A program made the translations under genes and the position numbers. Of a stretch of DNA of 64,000 nt, positions 4,503-58,551 are shown piece by piece; the first letter of the stretch is position 1, and the number at the start of each line of letters is the position of its first letter. The DNA lies in assembly GCA_963668275.2 (NCBI GenBank), contig OY764155.1:224642-288641 (forward strand), read 5' to 3'. Source of the DNA: Dehalococcoidia bacterium. Lineage in GTDB: Bacteria > Chloroflexota > Dehalococcoidia > Lucifugimonadales > UBA1123. The notes under the pieces were generated by a model. That model was not told the origin of the DNA and ran no database searches. It saw only the letters and a list, made by a program, of their open reading frames with translations.

Positions 4503-5264
4503 ATGCGCGTGGCGATGATCGTCGAATACCACGGAAAGGGATACAGCGGATTCCAGTACCAGGAGAACGCTCCCACCGTACAGCAGCAGATTGAAAAAGC
4601 AATACGGTCCCTCACCGGACAGCCGGTCAGGATAAAGGCGGCGGGTCGCACCGACGCGGGCGTTCACGCGCTCGGACAGGTGGTGGCCTTCGATACGGAC
4701 GCCGACTATCCCCCGCTCACCTTCCTGAACGCGCTGAACGCGCGGCTGCCGCGGGACATAGCGGTAAGAGAGGCGTACCGGGCGCGACCGGACTTCGATC
4801 CGAGGCGCGACGCGATAAGCAGACTGTACCGGTACACGCTACTCGTGTCGAAGGTCAGGTCGCCGGTATGGAGACACAACTCTCACCAGGTAAGACCGCC
4901 TCTGGCCCTGGACTCGATGCGCGAGGCGGCCTCGCTGATGGTCGGCGTTCACGATTTCGCCAACTTCGGCGGCCCGCTGGAGCGTCCCGAAGCCAGTACG
5001 GTGCGCCGCGTTTACGGGATAGACATGAGGGTCGACGGCGCTTTCATACAGGTGGAGATCGAGGGAAACGCCTTCCTGCCCAGACAGGTGAGGCGCATGG
5101 TGGGCGCGCTCGCCGACGTGGGCGCCGGAAGATTGAAACTAGAGGATATAAGAAAACAGATTTCGAGAGCGGAGGACGCTCCTGTAACTCGCTCCCTGCC
5201 GCCGCGGGGTTTGTGTTTAGTAAGCGTGAAGTACGCGGATTTTCCTCCGCGACATGAGGAATAG
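4503..5264 (+). CDS. truA: tRNA pseudouridine(38-40) synthase
   Basis: GFQYQ and AAGRTDAGVHALGQVVAF (catalytic Asp motif). Position between rplQ and rplM. Confidence 0.93.
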   Translation: MRVAMIVEYHGKGYSGFQYQENAPTVQQQIEKAIRSLTGQPVRIKAAGRTDAGVHALGQVVAFDTDADYPPLTFLNALNARLPRDIAVREAYRARPDFDPRRDAISRLYRYTLLVSKVRSPVWRHNSHQVRPPLALDSMREAASLMVGVHDFANFGGPLERPEASTVRRVYGIDMRVDGAFIQVEIEGNAFLPRQVRRMVGALADVGAGRLKLEDIRKQISRAEDAPVTRSLPPRGLCLVSVKYADFPPRHEE

Positions 5265-5270
5265 ATCAAA

Positions 5271-5705
5271 ATGGTTACAAGTTCGAAGCCATACGAGACC
5301 AAGTCGTCCGACCTGAACCCGAAGTGGCACGTCGTGGACGCCGAGGGCCAGACGCTCGGAAGGATTGCGTCGCGGATAGCCGCGATCCTGAACGGCAAGC
5401 GCAACCCTATGTACGTGCCGCATCTGCTCACCGGCGACTACGTGGTCGTGCTCAACGCCGACAAGATACGAGTCACCGGAAACAAGATGAGCCAGAAGAT
5501 GTACTACCGGCACAGCGGCTACCATGGCGGCCTTACCGAGCGCACCATGGAGCAGATGATGGCGAGGCACCCTGACCGGGTGATCCGCCAGGCCGTGAAG
5601 GGTATGTTGCCCAAGAACTCGCTGGGCAGAAAGATGCTGAAACGACTAAAGATATACACCGGAACGAGCCATCCGCACGAGGCTCAGGTAGGGAAGGGGA
5701 CGTAA
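5271..5705 (+). CDS. rplM: 50S ribosomal protein L13
   Basis: WHVVDAEGQTLGRIASRIAAILNGK and YYRHSGYHGG are L13 signatures. Confidence 0.96.
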   Translation: MVTSSKPYETKSSDLNPKWHVVDAEGQTLGRIASRIAAILNGKRNPMYVPHLLTGDYVVVLNADKIRVTGNKMSQKMYYRHSGYHGGLTERTMEQMMARHPDRVIRQAVKGMLPKNSLGRKMLKRLKIYTGTSHPHEAQVGKGT

Positions 5706-6110
5706 ATGGTTCAGCAGACCCAGCAGCACTACTACTACGCGATTGGAAAGCGAAAGACCTCGGTTGCCCAGGTCAGGCTCTACACTGATTCGGGCGCGAA
5801 CCAGGTAAACGGCAAGCCCTTGGAAGAATTCTTCCCCTGGGATTCCTGGCAGCAGCTTATTGACCAGCCCATGGACGTGACGGGAACGCACGGCCAGTTC
5901 CGCATCGTCGCCAAGATACGCGGCGGCGGCGTCGTAAGCCAGGCGGGGGCGCTGCGTCACGGAATCGCCCGGGCGCTCCAGGTCGCCGACCCGTCGCTGA
6001 GGTCGTCGCTCAAGAGAGCCGGCCTCCTCACCCGAGACGCCCGCGAGAAGGAGCGCAAGAAGTACGGCCTAGCCCGCGCCCGCAAAGCCAAGCAGTGGAC
6101 GAAGCGCTAG
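5706..6110 (+). CDS. rpsI: 30S ribosomal protein S9
   Basis: YYAIGKRKTSVAQVRL and C-terminal RDAREKERKKYGLARARKAKQWTKR. Confidence 0.96.
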   Translation: MVQQTQQHYYYAIGKRKTSVAQVRLYTDSGANQVNGKPLEEFFPWDSWQQLIDQPMDVTGTHGQFRIVAKIRGGGVVSQAGALRHGIARALQVADPSLRSSLKRAGLLTRDAREKERKKYGLARARKAKQWTKR

Positions 6111-26010: not shown

Positions 26011-26421
26011 CTACGAGCCAGTCTCTTCCTTTGCCGCTTCCACGGCTCTCCTGATGTCCTCGATGGATGCGTCGGGATCCTGCGCCCACTTGGTAAAAAC
26101 CAAGTCTATGCCCGAGGCCATGGCCTCTTCCCGCATCTTCTTTTGCTGCGCCTCTCTCTGTTTTCGCCGTTTCTCTCTCTGTTCGAGCGCGTAGAATATC
26201 ATGCTTATTCCCCTGTCTATCACCAGCGCGACAACGATGTAAGTCAGAACGCCCAAGTCAACCATGTCTGACAAGGCGGCAAGGTGATCCCATATTTTCC
26301 AGAACTCCCAGACCCTCCAGCCGATTATATCAAAGTAGGTCAACAGGTAGGTTGTCAGCCCGATCCCGAAAGGCGCCAGATTCGCGTGCAGCCTGGACCA
26401 TCTCGGCAATTGGATTTCCAT
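26011..26421 (-). CDS. small 2-TM protein with charged C-terminal helix (paralog family member 1)
   Basis: 136 aa. Shares RH.L.APFG..LTTYLLT, FYALEQREKRRK and DP.AS.EDIRRAV blocks with the ORFs at 46053 and 55205. Confidence 0.6.
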   Translation of the reverse strand: MEIQLPRWSRLHANLAPFGIGLTTYLLTYFDIIGWRVWEFWKIWDHLAALSDMVDLGVLTYIVVALVIDRGISMIFYALEQREKRRKQREAQQKKMREEAMASGIDLVFTKWAQDPDASIEDIRRAVEAAKEETGS

Positions 26422-26499
26422 GTTCGTCCCCCAAGCGGTTTCGGCTGTTCACCCTATCCGCCATTGACGCGCCAAGTCAACATCCATAGATCTGAATAA

Positions 26500-27178
26500 C
26501 TGATGTTACGCACTGGGCAGGGCTTTGCGACTATTCAGACCGGGGTCTTCGCAGAGTCGCCGGTCTGCGGCCTGGGCGCGTTGGTCATATATCTCAATTT
26601 ATATCGTACAGGTGGGGTTACAGGTGAGTTTCCAAGTGGGACAGGTTACAGTTCACGTGGAAAGTGACCTGTTATCACCTGTTGTTATACCATTTCATTC
26701 TGATTAGGACATTAACTTCAGAGGCAGGCAAGATCGTCCTTCGACAAGCTCAGGACGAACGGTGGAAGCATCAAATACCTGGCGCGCAACCGTGGGAACA
26801 CGACGACGTTACTCCGAATTGGTATTAGCTACGGACAGAAAAATTTTCGCCGGCGGATTCATTTTGGATAACCTCCTGTTTATGTAAAGATTGGGTCGGT
26901 CATAGTTCATTGGGCGACATGATAGCATGAACGTTCTGTCGAATGGAAGAATGTTTCAGACTGCGCGCAGGGCAATCGCATCTAAACGGCGCTTACGTTC
27001 GCAAACAGGTAAATCTTGGGCAGAAACCTCTCATAGATGTCACTGCGCGGTTTCAGAATTTCAAAATAGCGATCATGGGTTCGATCATTGTGGTAGTTTC
27101 GGGGTTTCATGGAGCGAAAACACCCTTGAAAAAGCCCGAAAATTAAGATGCGATTGCCCTGAGACTGCGTAACATCAG
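26500..27178 (+). mobile_element. non-autonomous TIR element copy A (679 bp) with 7-bp TSD TGAATAA
   Basis: Terminal inverted repeat CTGATGTTACGCA...TGCGTAACATCAG. TGAATAA at 26493-26499 and 27179-27185. No transposase-sized ORF. Confidence 0.8.
26688..26824. mobile_element. nested 137-bp MITE inside copy A (TIR TACCATTTC/GAATTGGTA, TSD TTA)
   Basis: Absent from copy B, which reads GTTG-TTA-GCT at the empty site. TTA is duplicated at 26685-26687 and 26825-26827. Confidence 0.65.
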
Positions 27179-27259
27179 TGAATAAGACATCCTGCTCGAC
27201 TAAGTGGACAGTTCTAATGTCCAGTTATACAATATAGCCATTCCAAACGGGGAAAAGTC

Positions 27260-46052: not shown

Positions 46053-46505
46053 ATGGATAGCAGATTTCCCGGTTGGGCGGCGCGACACGCGCTCTTCGCC
46101 CCTTGGGGCATATTGGCGACGACGTATGTCTTGACCGTGTACGTCAAGGCAGTCGGCTGGAACATCTGGAACGACCGCGCCAACATTGTTACCATGTCCG
46201 ATATGGCGGACTTGGGCCTTATCGTCTATGCCTGCGGAGCGTCTTTAGTGGAGGTATTCATAGGAATGGCATTCTACGCGCTGGAACAAAGAAAGAAGCG
46301 AATGGAACAGAGGCGGAGAGAAGAGGAGGAGAGGCGGAAGGAAGAGGAACAGAGGCTGGAAAAGGCCAGGCAGAGGGGTAGGGAAATAGGTAGGCAGCAA
46401 GTTATACGTATGTTCGCCATCAAGGCGAACGAGAATCCCCAAGCCTCAGTCGAGGAATTGGTGGAAGCCGTGACGTCCGAGATGGAAAAGTCCGAGCGAA
46501 ACTAG
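46053..46505 (+). CDS. small 2-TM protein with charged C-terminal helix (paralog family member 2)
   Basis: 150 aa; RHALFAPWGILATTYVLT, FYALEQRKKRMEQRRREEEE, ENPQASVEELVEAV. Confidence 0.6.
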   Translation: MDSRFPGWAARHALFAPWGILATTYVLTVYVKAVGWNIWNDRANIVTMSDMADLGLIVYACGASLVEVFIGMAFYALEQRKKRMEQRRREEEERRKEEEQRLEKARQRGREIGRQQVIRMFAIKANENPQASVEELVEAVTSEMEKSERN

Positions 46506-52543: not shown

Positions 52544-53644
52544 ATGACCTCGCTCAAGGATAATTTCAACGGCATTCAGGAATACGCCGACGACCAGGGT
52601 CTTGATCTTGGGTGGATTGACCGGCAGGGCGAGTGGGGAGTCAAGGCGTCCGCGGACGGCGCGAAGGGCCTCACGCTCAACGACACGCAGATCGGCAGCT
52701 ACGGCGACCCGCCCGAAGAGTCGGACAACATGACGGGCAAGCCCAGGGGCGCGGCGGCCAGGCCCAACGCCTACCGCATCGGCGGCTACCAGGTGCGAAC
52801 CAAGTCGGACATCTGGCTCACCAACGCCTCGATGTTGTATGAAGAGGCGCTCCAGCGACAGTGGAGTTCGGCCACCGACATTCCATGGCACGCGATCAAG
52901 CCGCTGCCGGACGACATCGAGCGAGCGCAGTGCCAGTTGGCGACGTTCCTGACGGAGGTCGAGTTCGTGGCGGCGGACATACCGGGACGATGGGTAGCCA
53001 GCACGACGCCGGACTACTTCGAGCCGCGAATGTTCCTCATCACGCAGATAATGGACGAGTCGCGCCACCTGGACGTTTTCCGCAAGCGAGCTCTCGCCAA
53101 CGGCGGCGGGCTGATGCAGCGACCGGATATCAACGTCACAACAAGCGGCGTGGTGGGCAGCATTGACCTGTCCAGGGACTTCACCGAGATGTCCTCGCGG
53201 CTGCACATATCGGGGGAGGGCGCGGTGCTGACCATCTTCCGCATGGGCGAACTGATGGCGTACAACGACGCCGAGAAGCGCATCTACCGCCTCGCGGCGC
53301 AGGACGAGTCTCGCCACGTCGCGTTCGGCGTAATGCACATGAGATACCTGGCCGAGACCGAGCCGGACCGCAAGGAAGAGATACACGAATACCTGGACGA
53401 GGGCGAGCGCAGCCTGGTCTCAGGGAGCCAGAATCCCGCCGCGCGCGATTCGGCGCAGAGCGAGTCGCTGTCCATACTGCTGGGCGGCGGACAGAAGAAC
53501 TTCGACGAGGGCTACCGCAAGCTGCTCGCCATACGCAAGCGGCAGGCGAAAGAGTACGTCCAGCGCATCCGCTCAGCCGGATTCGGCGAGAGATTCGAGA
53601 ACGGCAGGGCCAACCCCGAGCTTATGGAATACGTGAGGAGCTAG
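52544..53644 (+). CDS. ferritin-like diiron-carboxylate protein (putative oxygenase catalytic subunit)
   Basis: A complete E...ExxH...E...ExxH set: LTEVEF, IMDESRHLDVF, ISGEGAV, AAQDESRHVAFG. Confidence 0.72.
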   Translation: MTSLKDNFNGIQEYADDQGLDLGWIDRQGEWGVKASADGAKGLTLNDTQIGSYGDPPEESDNMTGKPRGAAARPNAYRIGGYQVRTKSDIWLTNASMLYEEALQRQWSSATDIPWHAIKPLPDDIERAQCQLATFLTEVEFVAADIPGRWVASTTPDYFEPRMFLITQIMDESRHLDVFRKRALANGGGLMQRPDINVTTSGVVGSIDLSRDFTEMSSRLHISGEGAVLTIFRMGELMAYNDAEKRIYRLAAQDESRHVAFGVMHMRYLAETEPDRKEEIHEYLDEGERSLVSGSQNPAARDSAQSESLSILLGGGQKNFDEGYRKLLAIRKRQAKEYVQRIRSAGFGERFENGRANPELMEYVRS

Positions 53645-53648
53645 TCGC

Positions 53649-54761
53649 TTGGCAGACGAAGAAAGGCAGCGGACGGTCGCCGGACAGAAGACCGAGGTGT
53701 GGGAACGCCCCAGGCGCAGGCGAACTCTCCAGACGGACGAAAGCGTAGAGGTGCCGGAGCCTTCATACGCCTGGATGCCGCGCACGCTCCAGTGGGAGAC
53801 GCGGGTGAAGCCGGGCAAGGCCGGACTCAGAATCGGCGACCTGAACGTGGGCATATACGGCGAGATTCCCGACCACTGGGAGGAGCAGACCCGTATGCCG
53901 CGCGGCGCGTATCCGCTCGAGGGCATACCTCCGCTCGGCTTCGCGCTCAAGAACAAGCGCGATATGTGGGCGGACAACGCCGCCGATCTCTACGAAGAGG
54001 CCATCCAGAGACGCTGGGTCGCGGCGACGGACATCCCCTGGGACACCATCGAGCCGCTTCCCGACGACGTGGAGGCGGCCATGTGCCAACTCTGCACCGA
54101 GTTGAGCCAGGCCGCCAACGTGGAGTTCGAGACGATAGGCTACTGGCTTCAGCATATGTCCTACGGCTACCACGAGGTAAAGCTGTTCCTCGCCACCAAT
54201 ATGTTCGACGCCGGACGCCACCACGAGGCGTTCAGGAAGCGCGCGCTGTCCAACGGCGGCGGACTCGGACTCGAAAGCCGGGGCGAGATCAACCGCATGA
54301 TACTGGAGAGCAAGGGCGGCTGGTCGGAGACTAGCCTGTTTCTGCACCTGCTGAGAGGGACGTACATTCTCAGCGTTTACAGGCATTGCGAACGCTTCGC
54401 CAACAATCCCGCCGAGAAGGTCCTGTTCGCGCGCGCTATGCAGGACAAGGCGCGGCACGTCGCCTACGGAATCCAGCATCTGCGCTACGCGGTCACGCAC
54501 CAGCGGGACAAGGCGCTGATATTCCAACGGCTGCTGTTCATAGGCGAGCGCGTCTTTACCAAGGAACTACAGGATCCCGCGATGCTGGAGCCGCTGGCAA
54601 TCGTGTTCGGCGGCGGCATAGAGGGAGCGCGGGCCGGAATGGGACACGTCAAGCGCATGATGGCGGACTGGCTCACCAACTACATGGCCGCCTGCGAATG
54701 GATAGGTATACAGCGCGCCGCGCCCTTGTCCCCGGACCTCGCCGAGTACCTGGAGGATTAA
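53649..54761 (+). CDS. ferritin-like paralog with degenerate metal ligands (putative structural subunit)
   Basis: Colinear with the upstream gene (DIPW..I.PLPDD, FRKRAL.NGGG), but the motifs read MFDAGRHHEAF and MQDKARHVAYG. TTG start uncertain. Confidence 0.68.
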   Translation: MADEERQRTVAGQKTEVWERPRRRRTLQTDESVEVPEPSYAWMPRTLQWETRVKPGKAGLRIGDLNVGIYGEIPDHWEEQTRMPRGAYPLEGIPPLGFALKNKRDMWADNAADLYEEAIQRRWVAATDIPWDTIEPLPDDVEAAMCQLCTELSQAANVEFETIGYWLQHMSYGYHEVKLFLATNMFDAGRHHEAFRKRALSNGGGLGLESRGEINRMILESKGGWSETSLFLHLLRGTYILSVYRHCERFANNPAEKVLFARAMQDKARHVAYGIQHLRYAVTHQRDKALIFQRLLFIGERVFTKELQDPAMLEPLAIVFGGGIEGARAGMGHVKRMMADWLTNYMAACEWIGIQRAAPLSPDLAEYLED

Positions 54762-54763
54762 GA

Positions 54764-55201
54764 GTGCCTGTCTTCCCGTCCGTAGAGTGGTTCGACGCCG
54801 TGCGCCATGAATTCAACACGAATGAGGTTGTGCAGACCGCCGGGGGCGGTATGTGCGACGCGAAGGTCGGCGTCAAGGCGGCGGGCCGCGTGTTCCTGCT
54901 GGTGTTCGAGGGGTTCGAGTGCTCGTCGGCGTCTGAGATAGCGGAGTCCGACCTGGAAGACACCGACTTCTACCTCGATATGCCGGAGGAAGAATGGCGG
55001 GATATGATCTTGAACATCCGCGAGAACGGCGAAGCGGACCTCGACCACTCGCTCAACACCATTGACCTCGACACTCTGGACGGACTCGCGCACTCCTACA
55101 CCGGCGACCAGTACCGCCAGGATATGTTCTTCCGCTACAACCAGACGTTCCAGTACTTCTTCGACCAGTCGGCGCGGGTGGAGACTGAGTTCGGGGAATA
55201 G
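54764..55201 (+). CDS. SCP2/sterol-carrier-like protein (copy 1)
   Basis: GTG start 3 nt after the previous stop. VPVFPSVEWFDAVRHEFN ... paralog of 57393-57809. Confidence 0.7.
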   Translation: MPVFPSVEWFDAVRHEFNTNEVVQTAGGGMCDAKVGVKAAGRVFLLVFEGFECSSASEIAESDLEDTDFYLDMPEEEWRDMILNIRENGEADLDHSLNTIDLDTLDGLAHSYTGDQYRQDMFFRYNQTFQYFFDQSARVETEFGE

Positions 55202-55204
55202 GGC

Positions 55205-55570
55205 GTGAGGGATCAATTAAGCAGTCAGTGGCCCAAGCGTCATGTCCTGACCGCCCCCTGGGGAACGGCGCTGGCGACATGGTTATTGACGATATACTAC
55301 GACCCCGTTGCCTTCTACGCTATGGTGAGTATGGGCGCGATGGTATATGGTATGATTGCGTCATCGCTGGAAGTGGGAGGGTCAATCGTGTACTACATCT
55401 ATGAGAAAATCAAGAATGACAGGGCCAACCTGCGGAAACAGGGTATGGAACTGGTGCTTGCTAAGTTCTCGGAGAATCCCGGCTTATCTCCCGAAGAACT
55501 GAAGAAAGCCGTAATGGACGATTTGCAGGACGGCGGGCGCAGGAATGGTGATAGGGCCACAAACAGGTAG
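55205..55570 (+). CDS. small 2-TM protein with charged C-terminal helix (paralog family member 3)
   Basis: 121 aa, GTG start; RHVLTAPWGTALATWLLT, YYIYEKIKNDR, ENPGLSPEELKKAV. Confidence 0.6.
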   Translation: MRDQLSSQWPKRHVLTAPWGTALATWLLTIYYDPVAFYAMVSMGAMVYGMIASSLEVGGSIVYYIYEKIKNDRANLRKQGMELVLAKFSENPGLSPEELKKAVMDDLQDGGRRNGDRATNR

Positions 55571-55580
55571 TGTCTGCGAT

Positions 55581-55673
55581 CAGTACCGCCAGGATATGTT
55601 CTTCCGCTACAACCAGAGGTTTCAGTATTTCTTTGACCAGTCTGCGCGGGTGGAGACTGAGTTCGGGGAGTAG
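55581..55673 (+). repeat. 93-bp direct repeat: orphan second copy of the SCP2-like gene 3' end (copy of 55109-55201)
   Basis: QYRQDMFFRYNQRFQYFFDQSARVETEFGE-stop. By manual alignment, 6 mismatches to 55109-55201, 5 at third codon positions. Confidence 0.85.
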
Positions 55674-55682
55674 TTCACTTGA

Positions 55683-56426
55683 GTGGAGACAGTGCAAGAA
55701 CTCAATGCGAAAATGGATACACAAGGTTTCACTCAGGAGGTTGTAGAAGCGCTGGGATGTTACGTCTATCGGCTGATAGACCCGCGGAACGGCGAGACTT
55801 TCTATGTGGGTAGAGGCCGAGGACAACGGATTTTCGCTCATGTAAGCGGGGCTATCTCCGATGATGCTCAAAGCGTCGCCGACCCGAAGTTGGGGCGGAT
55901 CCATGAGATACAAGCGTTGGGTATGAATGTAGCGCACATTATCCACAGGCATGGGATGTCGGATGCGGTTGCAAAAGAGGTAGAGGCAGCACTGATAGAC
56001 GCTTATCCCGGGTTGGTCAATAGAGTAGCGGGAGAAGGCTCAAGAGATCGTGGTACGCGGCACGTGAATGAGATTGTGCTGGAATACAGCGCGGAGGAAT
56101 TCGTAGTGGAAGAGCCGCTAATCCTGATCTCGATTGGGCGGTTATGGAAGGAACTCGGGGTCTATGGGGCAGTGAAGGGCGTATGGAGGTTAAACCTGGA
56201 GCGAGCGAAGAAACACAAACTGGTGTTAGCCCATGTCAGAGGAGTAGTGAGGGGAGCGTACAGGCCGGAGAAGTGGTCGAAGGGGACAGTGGAGATGTTC
56301 CCGAAACGGATCGGTTTCGAGGGAAAAGAAGCCGAGCCCGAGATATGGAAGAAGTACGTCGGTAAAAGGGTGCCCGCCAAATACCGGAAACGAGGCGCTC
56401 AGGCTTCGGCCCGCTATTTGCAGTGA
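55683..56426 (+). CDS. GIY-YIG nuclease-domain protein (COG3680-like), free-standing
   Basis: CYVYRLIDPRNGETFYVGRGRGQRIFAH GIY-YIG motif. The start is either GTG 55683 or ATG 55713. Confidence 0.8.
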   Translation: METVQELNAKMDTQGFTQEVVEALGCYVYRLIDPRNGETFYVGRGRGQRIFAHVSGAISDDAQSVADPKLGRIHEIQALGMNVAHIIHRHGMSDAVAKEVEAALIDAYPGLVNRVAGEGSRDRGTRHVNEIVLEYSAEEFVVEEPLILISIGRLWKELGVYGAVKGVWRLNLERAKKHKLVLAHVRGVVRGAYRPEKWSKGTVEMFPKRIGFEGKEAEPEIWKKYVGKRVPAKYRKRGAQASARYLQ

Positions 56427-56446
56427 GAGTTTCAAGGCCGTCCATG

Positions 56447-56749
56447 TCAGCGAGGCGCGCGTTCGACAGCCATTTCCGTTGGCGCACTGTCGGAGTTCTC
56501 CTGAATGAACTCTAGCAGGCTTTTACGGAACGCCTTCATCGCTTCAGGTCTGCCCAAGAGTTCGCAGTCAAGGTCGTACTCGGAGAATATGCCGACCAAG
56601 TGATATGTGACTCTTGTAGTGTCCGGATCAGAATCGCCAAATCGAAAATCGTGCATGACGTTCTCGGACACACATTCGTATAGTTGCCGAAAAGTTAATT
56701 CCCCGTCAAGAGAGCGTTTAGCCTGTTCTAGTAGAGTACGCCCGTCCAT
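56447..56749 (-). CDS. hypothetical protein
   Basis: 100-aa ORF, no recognisable motif. Convergent with the GIY-YIG gene. Confidence 0.4.
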   Translation of the reverse strand: MDGRTLLEQAKRSLDGELTFRQLYECVSENVMHDFRFGDSDPDTTRVTYHLVGIFSEYDLDCELLGRPEAMKAFRKSLLEFIQENSDSAPTEMAVERAPR

Positions 56750-56837
56750 GTCCTATAATCCTTTGCCAGAGAGATTTGTTTCACCTTCCATTATAAGGGT
56801 ATGATTTACATTATCCAGCGCTGAATCTTCTTAAGGA

Positions 56838-57376
56838 CTGATGTTACGCAGTCTCAGGGCAATCGCATCTTAATTTTCGGGCTTTTTCAGGGGTGTTTTC
56901 GCTCCATGAAACCCCGAAACTACCACAATGGCCGAACCCATGATCGCTATTTTGAAATTCTGAAACCGCGCAATGACATCTATGAGAGGTTTCTGCCCAA
57001 GATTTACCTGTTTGCGAACGTAAGCGCCGTTTAGATGCGATTGCCCTGCGCGCAGTCTGAAACATTCTTCCATTCGACAGAACGTTCATGCTATCATGTC
57101 GCCCAATGAACTATGACCGACCCAGTCTTTACATAAACAGGAGATTATCCAAAATGAATCCGCCGAAGAAAATTTTTCTGTCCGTAGCTAACAACAGGTG
57201 ATAACAGGTCACTTTCCACGTGAACTGTAACCTGTCCCACTTGGAAACTCACCTGTAACCCCACCTGTACGATATAAATTGAGATATATGACCAATGCGC
57301 CCAGGCCGCAGACCGGCGACTCTGCGAAGACCCCGGTCTGAATAGTCGGAAAGCCCTGCCCAGTGCGTAACATCAG
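56838..57376 (-). mobile_element. non-autonomous TIR element copy B (539 bp) with 7-bp TSD TTAAGGA
   Basis: Reverse complement of copy A minus the nested 137 bp + 3 bp. TTAAGGA at 56831-56837 and 57377-57383. Confidence 0.8.
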
Positions 57377-57392
57377 TTAAGGACTAGAGTAT

Positions 57393-57809
57393 ATGCCTAT
57401 CTTCCCATCAATAGAATGGTTTGAGGCCGTCAGAGGCGCGGCGAATGGTGACCGCGGGTTTCGGAGCCTGGGCACTTGCTTCGCGCAGGTGGGAGTGCGG
57501 GTCGGGGAGCGCGTGTTTTTGCTGGACTTCGAGGCGTTTGAGTGCGCCGGGGTGTCGGAGGCGGACGAGGTCGCGTTGTACGACGTGGATTTCGCGCTCA
57601 GCATGGCCCCTGACGAGTGGCGGCGCCTGCTGGACAATATCAGGGAGAACGGCGGGGCGGACTCGGAGAACACGTTCAATACGCTGGACATCGAGCGTGG
57701 CATCGTCGAGTCGCCCAACCCATACGGACAGAACAACTTCCCCCGTTACCATCTTACGATTCAGCGATTCTTCGACGTGTCGAGCGGGGTAGAGACCACA
57801 TTCGCGTGA
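57393..57809 (+). CDS. SCP2/sterol-carrier-like protein (copy 2)
   Basis: MPIFPSIEWFEAVRGAAN...; colinear with 54764-55201. Confidence 0.7.
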   Translation: MPIFPSIEWFEAVRGAANGDRGFRSLGTCFAQVGVRVGERVFLLDFEAFECAGVSEADEVALYDVDFALSMAPDEWRRLLDNIRENGGADSENTFNTLDIERGIVESPNPYGQNNFPRYHLTIQRFFDVSSGVETTFA

Positions 57810-57816
57810 GGCCGCC

Positions 57817-58098
57817 ATGCCTATCTATGAGTACCGATGCGAAGACTGCGAGGGCTTGACCGCCAAGCTGGTCAGGGGATTCGACGCGCCCGAGTCCATA
57901 GCCTGCCGCGAGTGCCGGGGCGAGAACACGCATCGCATTATATCCAGCGTCGCGTTCCACAAGTCGCTCAACTCCAGGCTGCAGGACCTCGACCCGCGCT
58001 ATGACCGCATGGCGGACGCCGCGGCGGCCAGCACCGCGGAAGCGGACCCCAACCGCTTCCTGAAGAGCGCGATTCCGCTGGACGCGGCTGAAGAATAG
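57817..58098 (+). CDS. FmdB-family zinc-ribbon protein
   Basis: MPIYEYRCEDCEG...CRECRG pattern. Confidence 0.8.
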   Translation: MPIYEYRCEDCEGLTAKLVRGFDAPESIACRECRGENTHRIISSVAFHKSLNSRLQDLDPRYDRMADAAAASTAEADPNRFLKSAIPLDAAEE

Positions 58099-58199: not shown

Positions 58200-58551
58200 G
58201 GGGACGCGCGGGTTCGACAGGGGATGCCTTCGCGGGACTGCAAGCCGAGGCGCCATCAACCTCGTTAATCAGGTGGCAAAGAAAGTACCTGACGACAATC
58301 AGTACGCACTAGCCGCGTAACACCGGCTACGTCTCCCGGTTCCGACTCCCGTAGGGGCCGACGAGGCGCCGAAAATCGGGATGCTGTTCCGGCGACGCCG
58401 ATGACCGGGACAAAAGACCATCGGCTAGCCTCGTGCGCCGCCTCTGCCGGTGCGGACGCGCCGGGGTGATTCAAAGCACCGGATAAGCTTGTAGATGTCT
58501 TAGACGAAGAGTCTTCTGGACGGGGAGTTCGACCCTCCCCCGTCTCCACCA
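58200..58551 (+). ncRNA. ssrA: tmRNA (SsrA)
   Basis: 5' GGGGACGCGCGGGTTCGACAGGGG and 3' GGACGGGGAGTTCGACCCTCCCCCGTCTCCACCA, with a G3:U70 acceptor pair. Tag ORF GCA AAG AAA GTA CCT GAC GAC AAT CAG TAC GCA CTA GCC GCG TAA = AKKVPDDNQYALAA. Confidence 0.93.

Follow-up and report, generated by a model that had tools for sequence, protein, structure and literature searches.

Within a 64,000-nt window, which is the whole stretch of DNA that was analysed (contig OY764155.1 of assembly GCA_963668275.2, positions 224,642 to 288,641) and part of a 3.6-Mb Dehalococcoidia genome, a gene for a small membrane protein (the TM gene, here TM1; 55205-55570, + strand, 121 aa) lies exactly between two direct copies of the 3' end of scpA, a gene encoding a protein of probable SCP2 fold. 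Copy A (55099-55201, + strand) is the last 103 nt of scpA, including its stop codon, and is functional coding sequence, whereas copy B (55571-55673, + strand) is a non-functional relic. From the comparison with related genomes, we read this arrangement as a recombination scar in a miniature defence islet between scpA and its paralogue scpB, one that was apparently not made by a homing or an integrating element. Copy B would be the neutral remainder of a single old duplication of about 0.5 kb, for which a local tandem origin is favoured with a probability of roughly 0.5. The single shared joint, the decay of copy B, what the second unit contains and which nucleases are present are regarded as established. 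Relatives are referred to by handles such as G013 or L095; G000 stands for the genome of the window in lists of alleles, and the suffix A or B marks the repeat copy.

Extent of the direct repeat and the shared joint

Self-BLAST of the window returned the repeat as a gap-free pair of 98 nt (55104-55201 and 55576-55673) with 7 mismatches (93% identity, E 2e-36). An earlier note, made from the sequence alone, had described a 93-nt pair (55109-55201 and 55581-55673) with 6 differences, 5 of them at third codon positions, a count that we obtained as well; the one additional mismatch of the 98-nt pair, C at 55108 against T at 55580, likewise falls on a third codon position. The ancestral repeat extended 5 nt further to the left and measured 103 nt (55099-55201 and 55571-55673), because the sequence 3' of the TM stop codon in the relatives derives from position -103 of scpA. 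Copy B thus starts right after the TM stop codon (55568-55570), and the novel joint, at which this stop codon is fused to scpA position -103, lies at 55570-55571. Two further statements of the note hold: the 121-aa open reading frame (ORF) at 55205-55570 does fill the interval between the copies, and the repeat is a trace of recombination and not a product of chance.

As several related strains or species are present in the sample and the read depth is strongly uneven along the region, a collapsed or chimeric strain join in the assembly had to be considered. Such an artefact is next to impossible, because short-read contigs from three samples (runs X1, X2 and X4) cover 55168-55610, i.e., the end of scpA, the TM gene, the joint and copy B, and because the same layout was found at the orthologous loci of independent genomes, in assemblies of other species (G013, L095, L098, L096 and L092). 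The doubt raised in the earlier note about the assembly at 55.1-55.7 kb is thus settled in favour of a real arrangement. An exact-pattern scan of the metagenome contigs for the scpA 3' end gave no match.

The same joint was found in eight genomes or contigs (G013, L096, the genome of the window, L098, L095, L094, L092 and G020), in all of which the TM stop codon is followed by decayed scpA sequence from -103 onwards (CACCGGCGACCAGT...). When the 20-mer CACCGGCGACCAGTACCGCC was compared with the sequence after the TM stop, 11-18 of the 20 positions matched in five alleles (a random 20-mer reaches at least 14 matches with P = 0.0005), and the mismatches were mostly transitions. L094 matched at 7/20, diverging past nucleotide 14, and G013 fits only if its 2-nt insertion is allowed. 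G020 fits after an internal scpA deletion from one GACCAGT to another (17/22, all 5 mismatches being transitions). The apparent joints of L092 (at -95) and G020 (at -48) had been considered independent and were rejected as such, since they proved to be the same joint after decay or after the GACCAGT-to-GACCAGT deletion; recurrent stacking of units was downgraded for that reason. A separate joint is present in G003, in which a second, longer scpA fragment (from -125) follows another remnant of the TM family.

In the tree of ferA and ferB that was used to place the relatives, the carriers of the repeat represent three branches of a group of 12 (99/99 support). Because the joint is common to these three branches, the event appears to be old, and not a recent cassette insertion. 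Raw four-fold divergence between the genome of the window and G013 is 0.19-0.20, with values of 0.25-0.51 for the other group members.

Decay of copy B and content of the second unit

B copies differ from A copies at 7-20% of positions, the four-fold divergence between these genomes being 0.19-0.45. The orthologous B copies of G013, L095 and L098 (12-20% divergence) contain stop codons and an indel, with two stop codons and a deletion of 1 nt in G013_B, one stop codon in L098_B and heavy mutation in L095_B. All this is consistent with a relic that decays neutrally. The 42-aa ORF at 55545-55673 had been a candidate for a functional copy B and was rejected, its orthologues being broken, and a scan of the scpA fragment for promoters and terminators found none.

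The third-position bias of the differences had been taken in the earlier note as a sign that each copy was coding sequence of a different lineage or paralogue while the two diverged. This argument fails because at least four of the six to seven differences between A and B arose in this lineage only, the third positions are rich in GC and G013_B is unbiased. At the 7 sites that distinguish A and B in the window, G013_B has the copy-A base at 6 and a different base (TCA) at the 7th. Within the aligned set, the changes to AGG, the first TTT, the second TTT and TCT are confined to copy B of this genome, except that the second TTT also occurs in L098_B; the GAT, TAT and GAG changes recur in some other B copies. 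In the repeat segment, 29/32 third positions are G or C, and by a hand count a decay biased from GC to AT would strike third positions in about 55% of cases, so that 6 of 7 has a P of about 0.1. The changes in G013_B show no third-position bias, and the orthologous B copies are broken in any case.

Downstream of copy B, a stretch of 39 nt (55674-55712, + strand) in front of the nuclease gene is read as a decayed version of the leader between scpA and TM together with the first TM codons. The homology of this stretch in the genome of the window alone is not significant. Behind the fragment, L096 has a stretch whose match to the scpA-TM leader plus the initial TM codons is significant against shuffled sequences (P < 0.0005), and next a second TM gene (TM2) with an internal deletion. 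A match to this leader is likewise present ahead of the nuclease gene in L095 (P < 0.0005), with a weaker one in G014 (P about 0.01), and in G003 too the scpA fragment precedes a truncated TM gene. As the second unit of L096 still has the leader and a broken TM2, the duplicated unit consisted of the last 103 nt of scpA, the leader and TM.

Nucleases and alleles of the scpA-scpB interval

The earlier note had a free-standing GIY-YIG nuclease gene starting 10 nt after the second repeat. An ORF does open there (GTG 55683), but the likely start is ATG 55713, because the homologues and the DNA homology between loci begin at about 55710; the gene would then span 55713-56426 (+ strand, 237 aa). Its product matches the PADLOC profile PDLC04031 (PD-T4-3) with an E-value of 1.8e-82, residues 1-235 aligning to positions 1-252 of 256, and the orthologues of L095, L098 and G014 reach 1e-81 to 7e-83 against the PD-T4-3 profile. 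It also matches the CMoRE crystal structures PDB 9U75 chain A (E 4.7e-66, residues 1-235 on 6-258) and 9U7U (E 2.3e-66), with nuclease and C-terminal sensing domains both covered by the alignment; further matches are PHROG 5356 and the Pfam family LEM-3_GIY-YIG. CMoRE is the new name of PD-T4-3, a single-gene type IV restriction endonuclease with a GIYxY-YIG motif, which uses its C-terminal sensing domain to degrade DNA containing 5-hydroxymethylcytosine (5hmC) or its glucosylated form (5ghmC) (Liu et al., Nat Commun 2026, PMC12923530). Counted from ATG 55713, the motif reads G15-C-Y17-V-Y19 ... F30-Y31-V-G33, with Y17, Y19 and Y31 in register, and the catalytic R39 (QRIFAH) and the glutamate of EVEAALIDAYPG align identically with CMoRE. 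The gene is thus best described as encoding a putative phage-restriction enzyme homologous to CMoRE, and not a homing enzyme. An inhibitory loop with four consecutive acidic residues is reported for "most" CMoRE members, and the E. coli enzyme becomes toxic and cleaves unmodified DNA when mutated to the 4A form (PMC12923530). In the window, this loop is reduced to two consecutive acidic residues (S-DDAQSVAD against AVDDDELLN in E. coli). Because the run of four is missing and the E. coli 4A mutant cuts unmodified DNA, this homologue may be regulated differently.

The family is patchy in the genus, with 13 matches in 11 of the 36 genomes searched, at several loci and partly as pseudogenes. The closest relatives by tree occupy unrelated contexts, and the DNA homology between loci is confined to the ORF. 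Repeats beside CMoRE genes were considered as a general signature and dropped, being present within about 1 kb at 4 of 25 other loci, with repeats of equal size about as common elsewhere in those loci. One such locus, in L061 (a metagenome-assembled genome (MAG) of SAR202), has a CMoRE homologue (5019-5774) between 132-nt direct repeats (4714-4845 and 5835-5966, 76% identical) that copy the 3' end of a convergent neighbour, read as DUF1524/HNH-like with an Excalibur-like tail. Its topology is that of the window (intact gene, ORF, 3' fragment), but the nuclease is inside the repeats.

The same slot is occupied in other relatives by a T5orf172 protein (Pfam 3e-18), which is a full-length match to the PADLOC candidate PDC-S57 (3e-77 in G010; 4e-64 to 2e-74 in L092, L094 and L096). 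Altogether, CMoRE is the cargo in G000, G013, G014, L095 and L098, and PDC-S57/T5orf172 in G010, G023, L092, L094 and L096. Since defence nucleases alternate at one site between conserved flanks and empty sites exist, we interpret the scpA-scpB interval as a miniature defence islet.

The earlier note had called for 'empty' loci in related genomes, and both these and several alternative alleles do exist. In about 19 relatives with the operon, G006 among them, scpA and scpB are only 14-170 nt apart. A contig of run X2, in which the scpA stop at 55202 continues straight into a scpB start (ATGCCAGCCTTTCCGTCGGTAGAATG), points to a related organism with the empty arrangement in the same sample. Compact alleles (scpA-TM-scpB), in which 4-5 nt part the TM stop from scpB, are found in G024, L097 and L099. 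The order scpA-TM-fragment-GIY-YIG gene-orf100-scpB is shared by the genome of the window, G013 (with a frameshifted nuclease gene), L095 and L098, orf100 being a short conserved gene on the opposite strand. L092 has scpA-TM-fragment-T5orf172-orf100, and L096 has the leader and the broken second TM between fragment and T5orf172-orf100, L094 being a deletion derivative of the latter allele. The nuclease gene directly follows scpA in G014 (GIY-YIG) and in G010 and G023 (T5orf172, in G023 a pseudogene). Remnant alleles are present in G011 and L093, and rearranged, broken loci in G003, G020 and G004. At the break points of G003 (L032 and L031), which part scpA-TM1 from fragment-TM2-orf100, two copies of an IS5-like transposase gene were found, and the islet of this genome was split by a rearrangement mediated by insertion sequences.

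Proposed origin of the duplicated unit

The history that we favour would start from a compact operon, scpA-TM-scpB, in which the TM stop codon lay 4-5 nt from scpB. Illegitimate recombination of the microhomology type would then have joined the TM stop to scpA position -103, most likely as a local tandem duplication, with scpA-TM1-[scpA 3' fragment-leader-TM2] as the product. Later, TM2 would have been overwritten or joined by single-gene defence nucleases and orf100, presumably in this order of events; in the genome of the window, the PD-T4-3/CMoRE gene would have replaced TM2 a few codons past its start. The 103-nt direct repeats would permit the loss of TM1 by homologous recombination, which may have given rise to alleles without TM such as that of G023, which is sister (97/97) in the ferA and ferB tree to L092 with its stacked allele. 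A local duplication is favoured because copy B, taken as the consensus of three such copies, comes closest to the A copies of its own group, agreeing with G000_A at 88/92 and with L095_A at 87/92 positions, as against 80-85/92 for more distant A copies. As to microhomology, L099 reads TGA|CACT at the place of the joint and scpA reads TACACC, which gives ACAC in common, and G013 keeps TGACACCGG.

Several observations weigh against this history. G014 is placed outside the 12-member group in the ferA and ferB tree and yet has the leader-CMoRE block, and some horizontal exchange of the islet must for this reason have occurred. The TM2 relics differ from the TM1 alleles by 20-33%, more than B does from A, and this could mean that the second unit came from another lineage. 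An intact TM1-fragment-TM2-scpB allele was not found among the alleles of the relatives, ACAC is present in only one of the three compact alleles (the others read ATCC and CCCT), and the segment of 92 nt is too short to identify a donor lineage. An attempt to name the donor from the fragment was dropped, as the B-to-A identities differ by a few of the 92 positions.

The main rival reading is an import of the second unit from a related lineage, running from scpA (-103) through the leader, TM2 or the nuclease gene, and orf100 to scpB. It would have come about by homology-facilitated illegitimate recombination, in which one crossover would have been homologous, within scpB or orf100, and the other a microhomology joint in the TM-scpB gap, and copy B would be a hitch-hiking piece of the donor's scpA. 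An import would account for the far greater divergence of TM2 relics from TM1 than of B from A, and for the collinearity of copy B-leader-CMoRE-orf100 with the TM-less G014, a genome from outside the group of the carriers (positions 55576-56799 of the window align collinearly, at 76%, to the scpA 3' end, CMoRE and orf100 of G014). It would also fit a joint that falls exactly in the sole short gap that leaves both TM and scpB intact, as well as two or three A/B differences (TAT, GAG and possibly TTT) that are synonymous and present in several B copies. Nevertheless, the consensus of copy B is nearest to the A copies of its own group, TM outpaces scpA in evolution anyway through linker indels, no donor allele has been identified, and the structure is symmetrical and does not indicate which side is foreign; overall, we consider an import less likely than a local duplication. 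It appears doubtful, too, that the scpA 3' end and leader serve as a portable homology handle, with units of handle and cargo being stacked and popped out through the 103-nt repeats. If they did, the islet would be a homology-driven cassette array that switches TM variants and defence nucleases in populations of sponge symbionts, and the -125 fragment of G003 and the pairs G023 and L092, and L096 and G000, would be snapshots of the process.

The earlier note had proposed homing-endonuclease-driven conversion, in which the GIY-YIG enzyme would cut the 3' end of a nuclease-less scpA and repair would copy in the nuclease gene with a replacement 3' end. The patchiness of the gene at several loci in the genus, the restriction of DNA homology to its ORF and the 132-nt repeats of a neighbour's 3' end around the L061 homologue are what such a process could leave behind. 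It is nonetheless very unlikely here: the repeats enclose TM and not the nuclease gene, the joint is older than the nuclease, whose slot is taken by TM2 in L096, the TM-fragment layout also precedes the unrelated T5orf172/PDC-S57 nuclease (L092 and L096), repeats near homologues elsewhere are not clearly commoner than in the rest of those loci, and the full-length match to CMoRE makes the protein a homologue of a modification-dependent restriction enzyme. An element that restores its target, the other mechanism suggested in the note, would be a site-specific integrating element carrying the 3' end of its target gene, with the repeats as attL and attR. Elements of this kind classically leave the 3' end of a gene repeated in direct orientation, and a gene for transfer-messenger RNA (tmRNA) is about 2.5 kb from copy B. 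The bracketed DNA is, however, a single gene of 366 nt, copy B decays freely in every lineage, the 3' end of the tmRNA is involved neither in the repeat nor in the variable region, and no integrase or recombinase gene was found between or beside the repeats, nor any recombinase domain in 52.5-58.1 kb. This explanation is accordingly exceedingly improbable, and the duplication in place, followed by reuse of the second slot, remains the reading that we prefer.

Operon and flanking elements

The gene order around the islet is ferA, ferB, scpA, TM, copy B, the GIY-YIG gene, orf100 (- strand), a miniature inverted-repeat transposable element (MITE), scpB, a gene for an FmdB zinc-ribbon protein, and tmRNA. 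The conserved operon (52544-55201 and 57393-58098) thus comprises two ferritin-like paralogues, two SCP2-fold paralogues and the FmdB zinc-ribbon protein; ferA and ferB have weak R2lox-like matches. The intact scpA (54764-55201, + strand, 145 aa) is the third gene of ferA-ferB-scpA and is kept in 34 of 61 related genomes. The label 'SCP2-like' in the earlier note is weakly supported, and at the level of the fold only: the AlphaFold2 model (pLDDT 92.5) finds in a Foldseek search of PDB the AF1534 SCP2 and UbiJ-SCP2 structures as best matches (3bn8, 3cnu and 6h6n), and all top matches are SCP2, with weak scores (probability 0.85-0.97, TM-score 0.44-0.63, E 0.03-0.07). It is not borne out by Pfam, in which no SCP2 match was obtained even at E 5. 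An exact look-up of the scpA protein returned no record. This SCP2-fold family, for which there is no Pfam model, has matches almost only among Chloroflexota metagenome proteins. Its second member, scpB (57393-57809, + strand, 138 aa, 49% identical to scpA), is the conserved right flank of the islet. Related records come from Dehalococcoidia, SAR202 and sponge-derived MAGs, and sponge metagenomes are among the runs that hold the sequence.

The TM protein had 26 homologues, all within this lineage, and no match in Pfam, NCBIfam, PHROG or PADLOC. Its alignment shows a conserved hydrophobic N-terminal half and a charged, indel-prone linker, which varies by tens of residues across the relatives (EGRAEG-type repeats). 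A hypervariability of TM through allele swapping was rejected on the basis of this alignment. All four runs contain a strain variant with a 12-nt insertion (GCTATGGCCGAA) at 55441, in the charged linker. The window also holds two distant TM paralogues (27% identity; 26041-26403, - strand, and 46074-46499, + strand), one of which adjoins the other copy of the MITE.

The conserved orf100 (56447-56749, - strand, 100 aa) is convergent with the nuclease gene, goes along with both nuclease types in the relatives and gave no match in Pfam, NCBIfam, PHROG, PADLOC or the PDB sequences; a promoter-like site lies ahead of it on the minus strand (56817-56790). Most of the spacer between orf100 and scpB is taken up by the MITE copy (56829-57379), a young insertion that is 97-99% identical to 26497-27187 on the opposite strand. 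The repeat has 42 matches in the genome, of which 15, the islet copy included, are of full or nearly full length (526-551 nt, 97-100% identity), and about 14 are short variants of 327 nt; it is described as an active MITE-like repeat. As a contig of run X3 joins 56819 to 57379 and lacks the islet MITE, this copy is polymorphic in the population. The tmRNA gene (58200-58551, tag DDNQYALAA) is situated about 0.4 kb past scpB and about 100 nt downstream of the zinc-ribbon gene, outside the islet; Rfam and tRNA scans of the islet found nothing else.

Comparison with known systems and implications

Defence genes are known to accumulate at hotspots between core genes, for example in the 'core defence hotspots' of E. 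coli and Pseudomonas and in the 'minimal mobile elements' of Neisseria. The islet resembles these in its conserved flanks (scpA and scpB), in a cargo that may be nothing, TM, CMoRE or PDC-S57, and in a turnover by recombination without a dedicated mobility gene; it differs in being tiny (0-2.2 kb) and internal to an operon between paralogues, and in keeping a datable 103-nt scar. Homology-facilitated illegitimate recombination was reportedly described by de Vries and Wackernagel in 2002. The window shares with such events, and with microhomology-mediated duplication, a joint at a few possibly microhomologous bases and a repeat that brackets the unit, with decay and repeat-mediated deletion to follow, the difference being that the event in the window is deduced from comparative genomics.

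Mobile GIY-YIG ORFs that bring along a replacement 3' end for their host gene, as in the mitochondrial atp6 of Allomyces, produce the same succession of intact gene, inserted ORF and displaced 3' fragment, but in the window the bracketed ORF is a membrane-protein gene, and the nuclease would be a restriction enzyme that arrived after the joint. From homing endonucleases of the Seg or I-Tev type, the window nuclease differs in a C-terminal half that aligns with the modification-sensing domain of CMoRE, in homologues at unrelated loci and in a joint that is older than the nuclease. To CMoRE itself it is alike in its full-length alignment over both domains, the three tyrosines in register, its single-gene nature and its patchy distribution; it differs in its host, an uncultured Dehalococcoidia (Chloroflexota), and in an acidic loop of the form DD..D in place of four consecutive residues.

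All of the parts, i.e., a CMoRE homologue, a PDC-S57 candidate, a defence hotspot and a duplication scar, are thus of known kinds. The locus stands out by its islet, which is very small and lies inside an operon between two paralogues, and by a datable scar of the origin and reuse of a spare slot. The locus reveals no new mobility mechanism, and the homing-endonuclease reading is removed. It provides a clean, datable example of how a tiny defence islet may arise and be reshaped within an operon in an uncultured Dehalococcoidia lineage of the sponge type: one old duplication would have given a second, expendable slot, which could be overwritten by CMoRE or PDC-S57 and which the repeats could delete again. 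Chloroflexota are, moreover, shown to have intact CMoRE homologues, a hint that phages whose cytosine is hydroxymethylated occur in these habitats.

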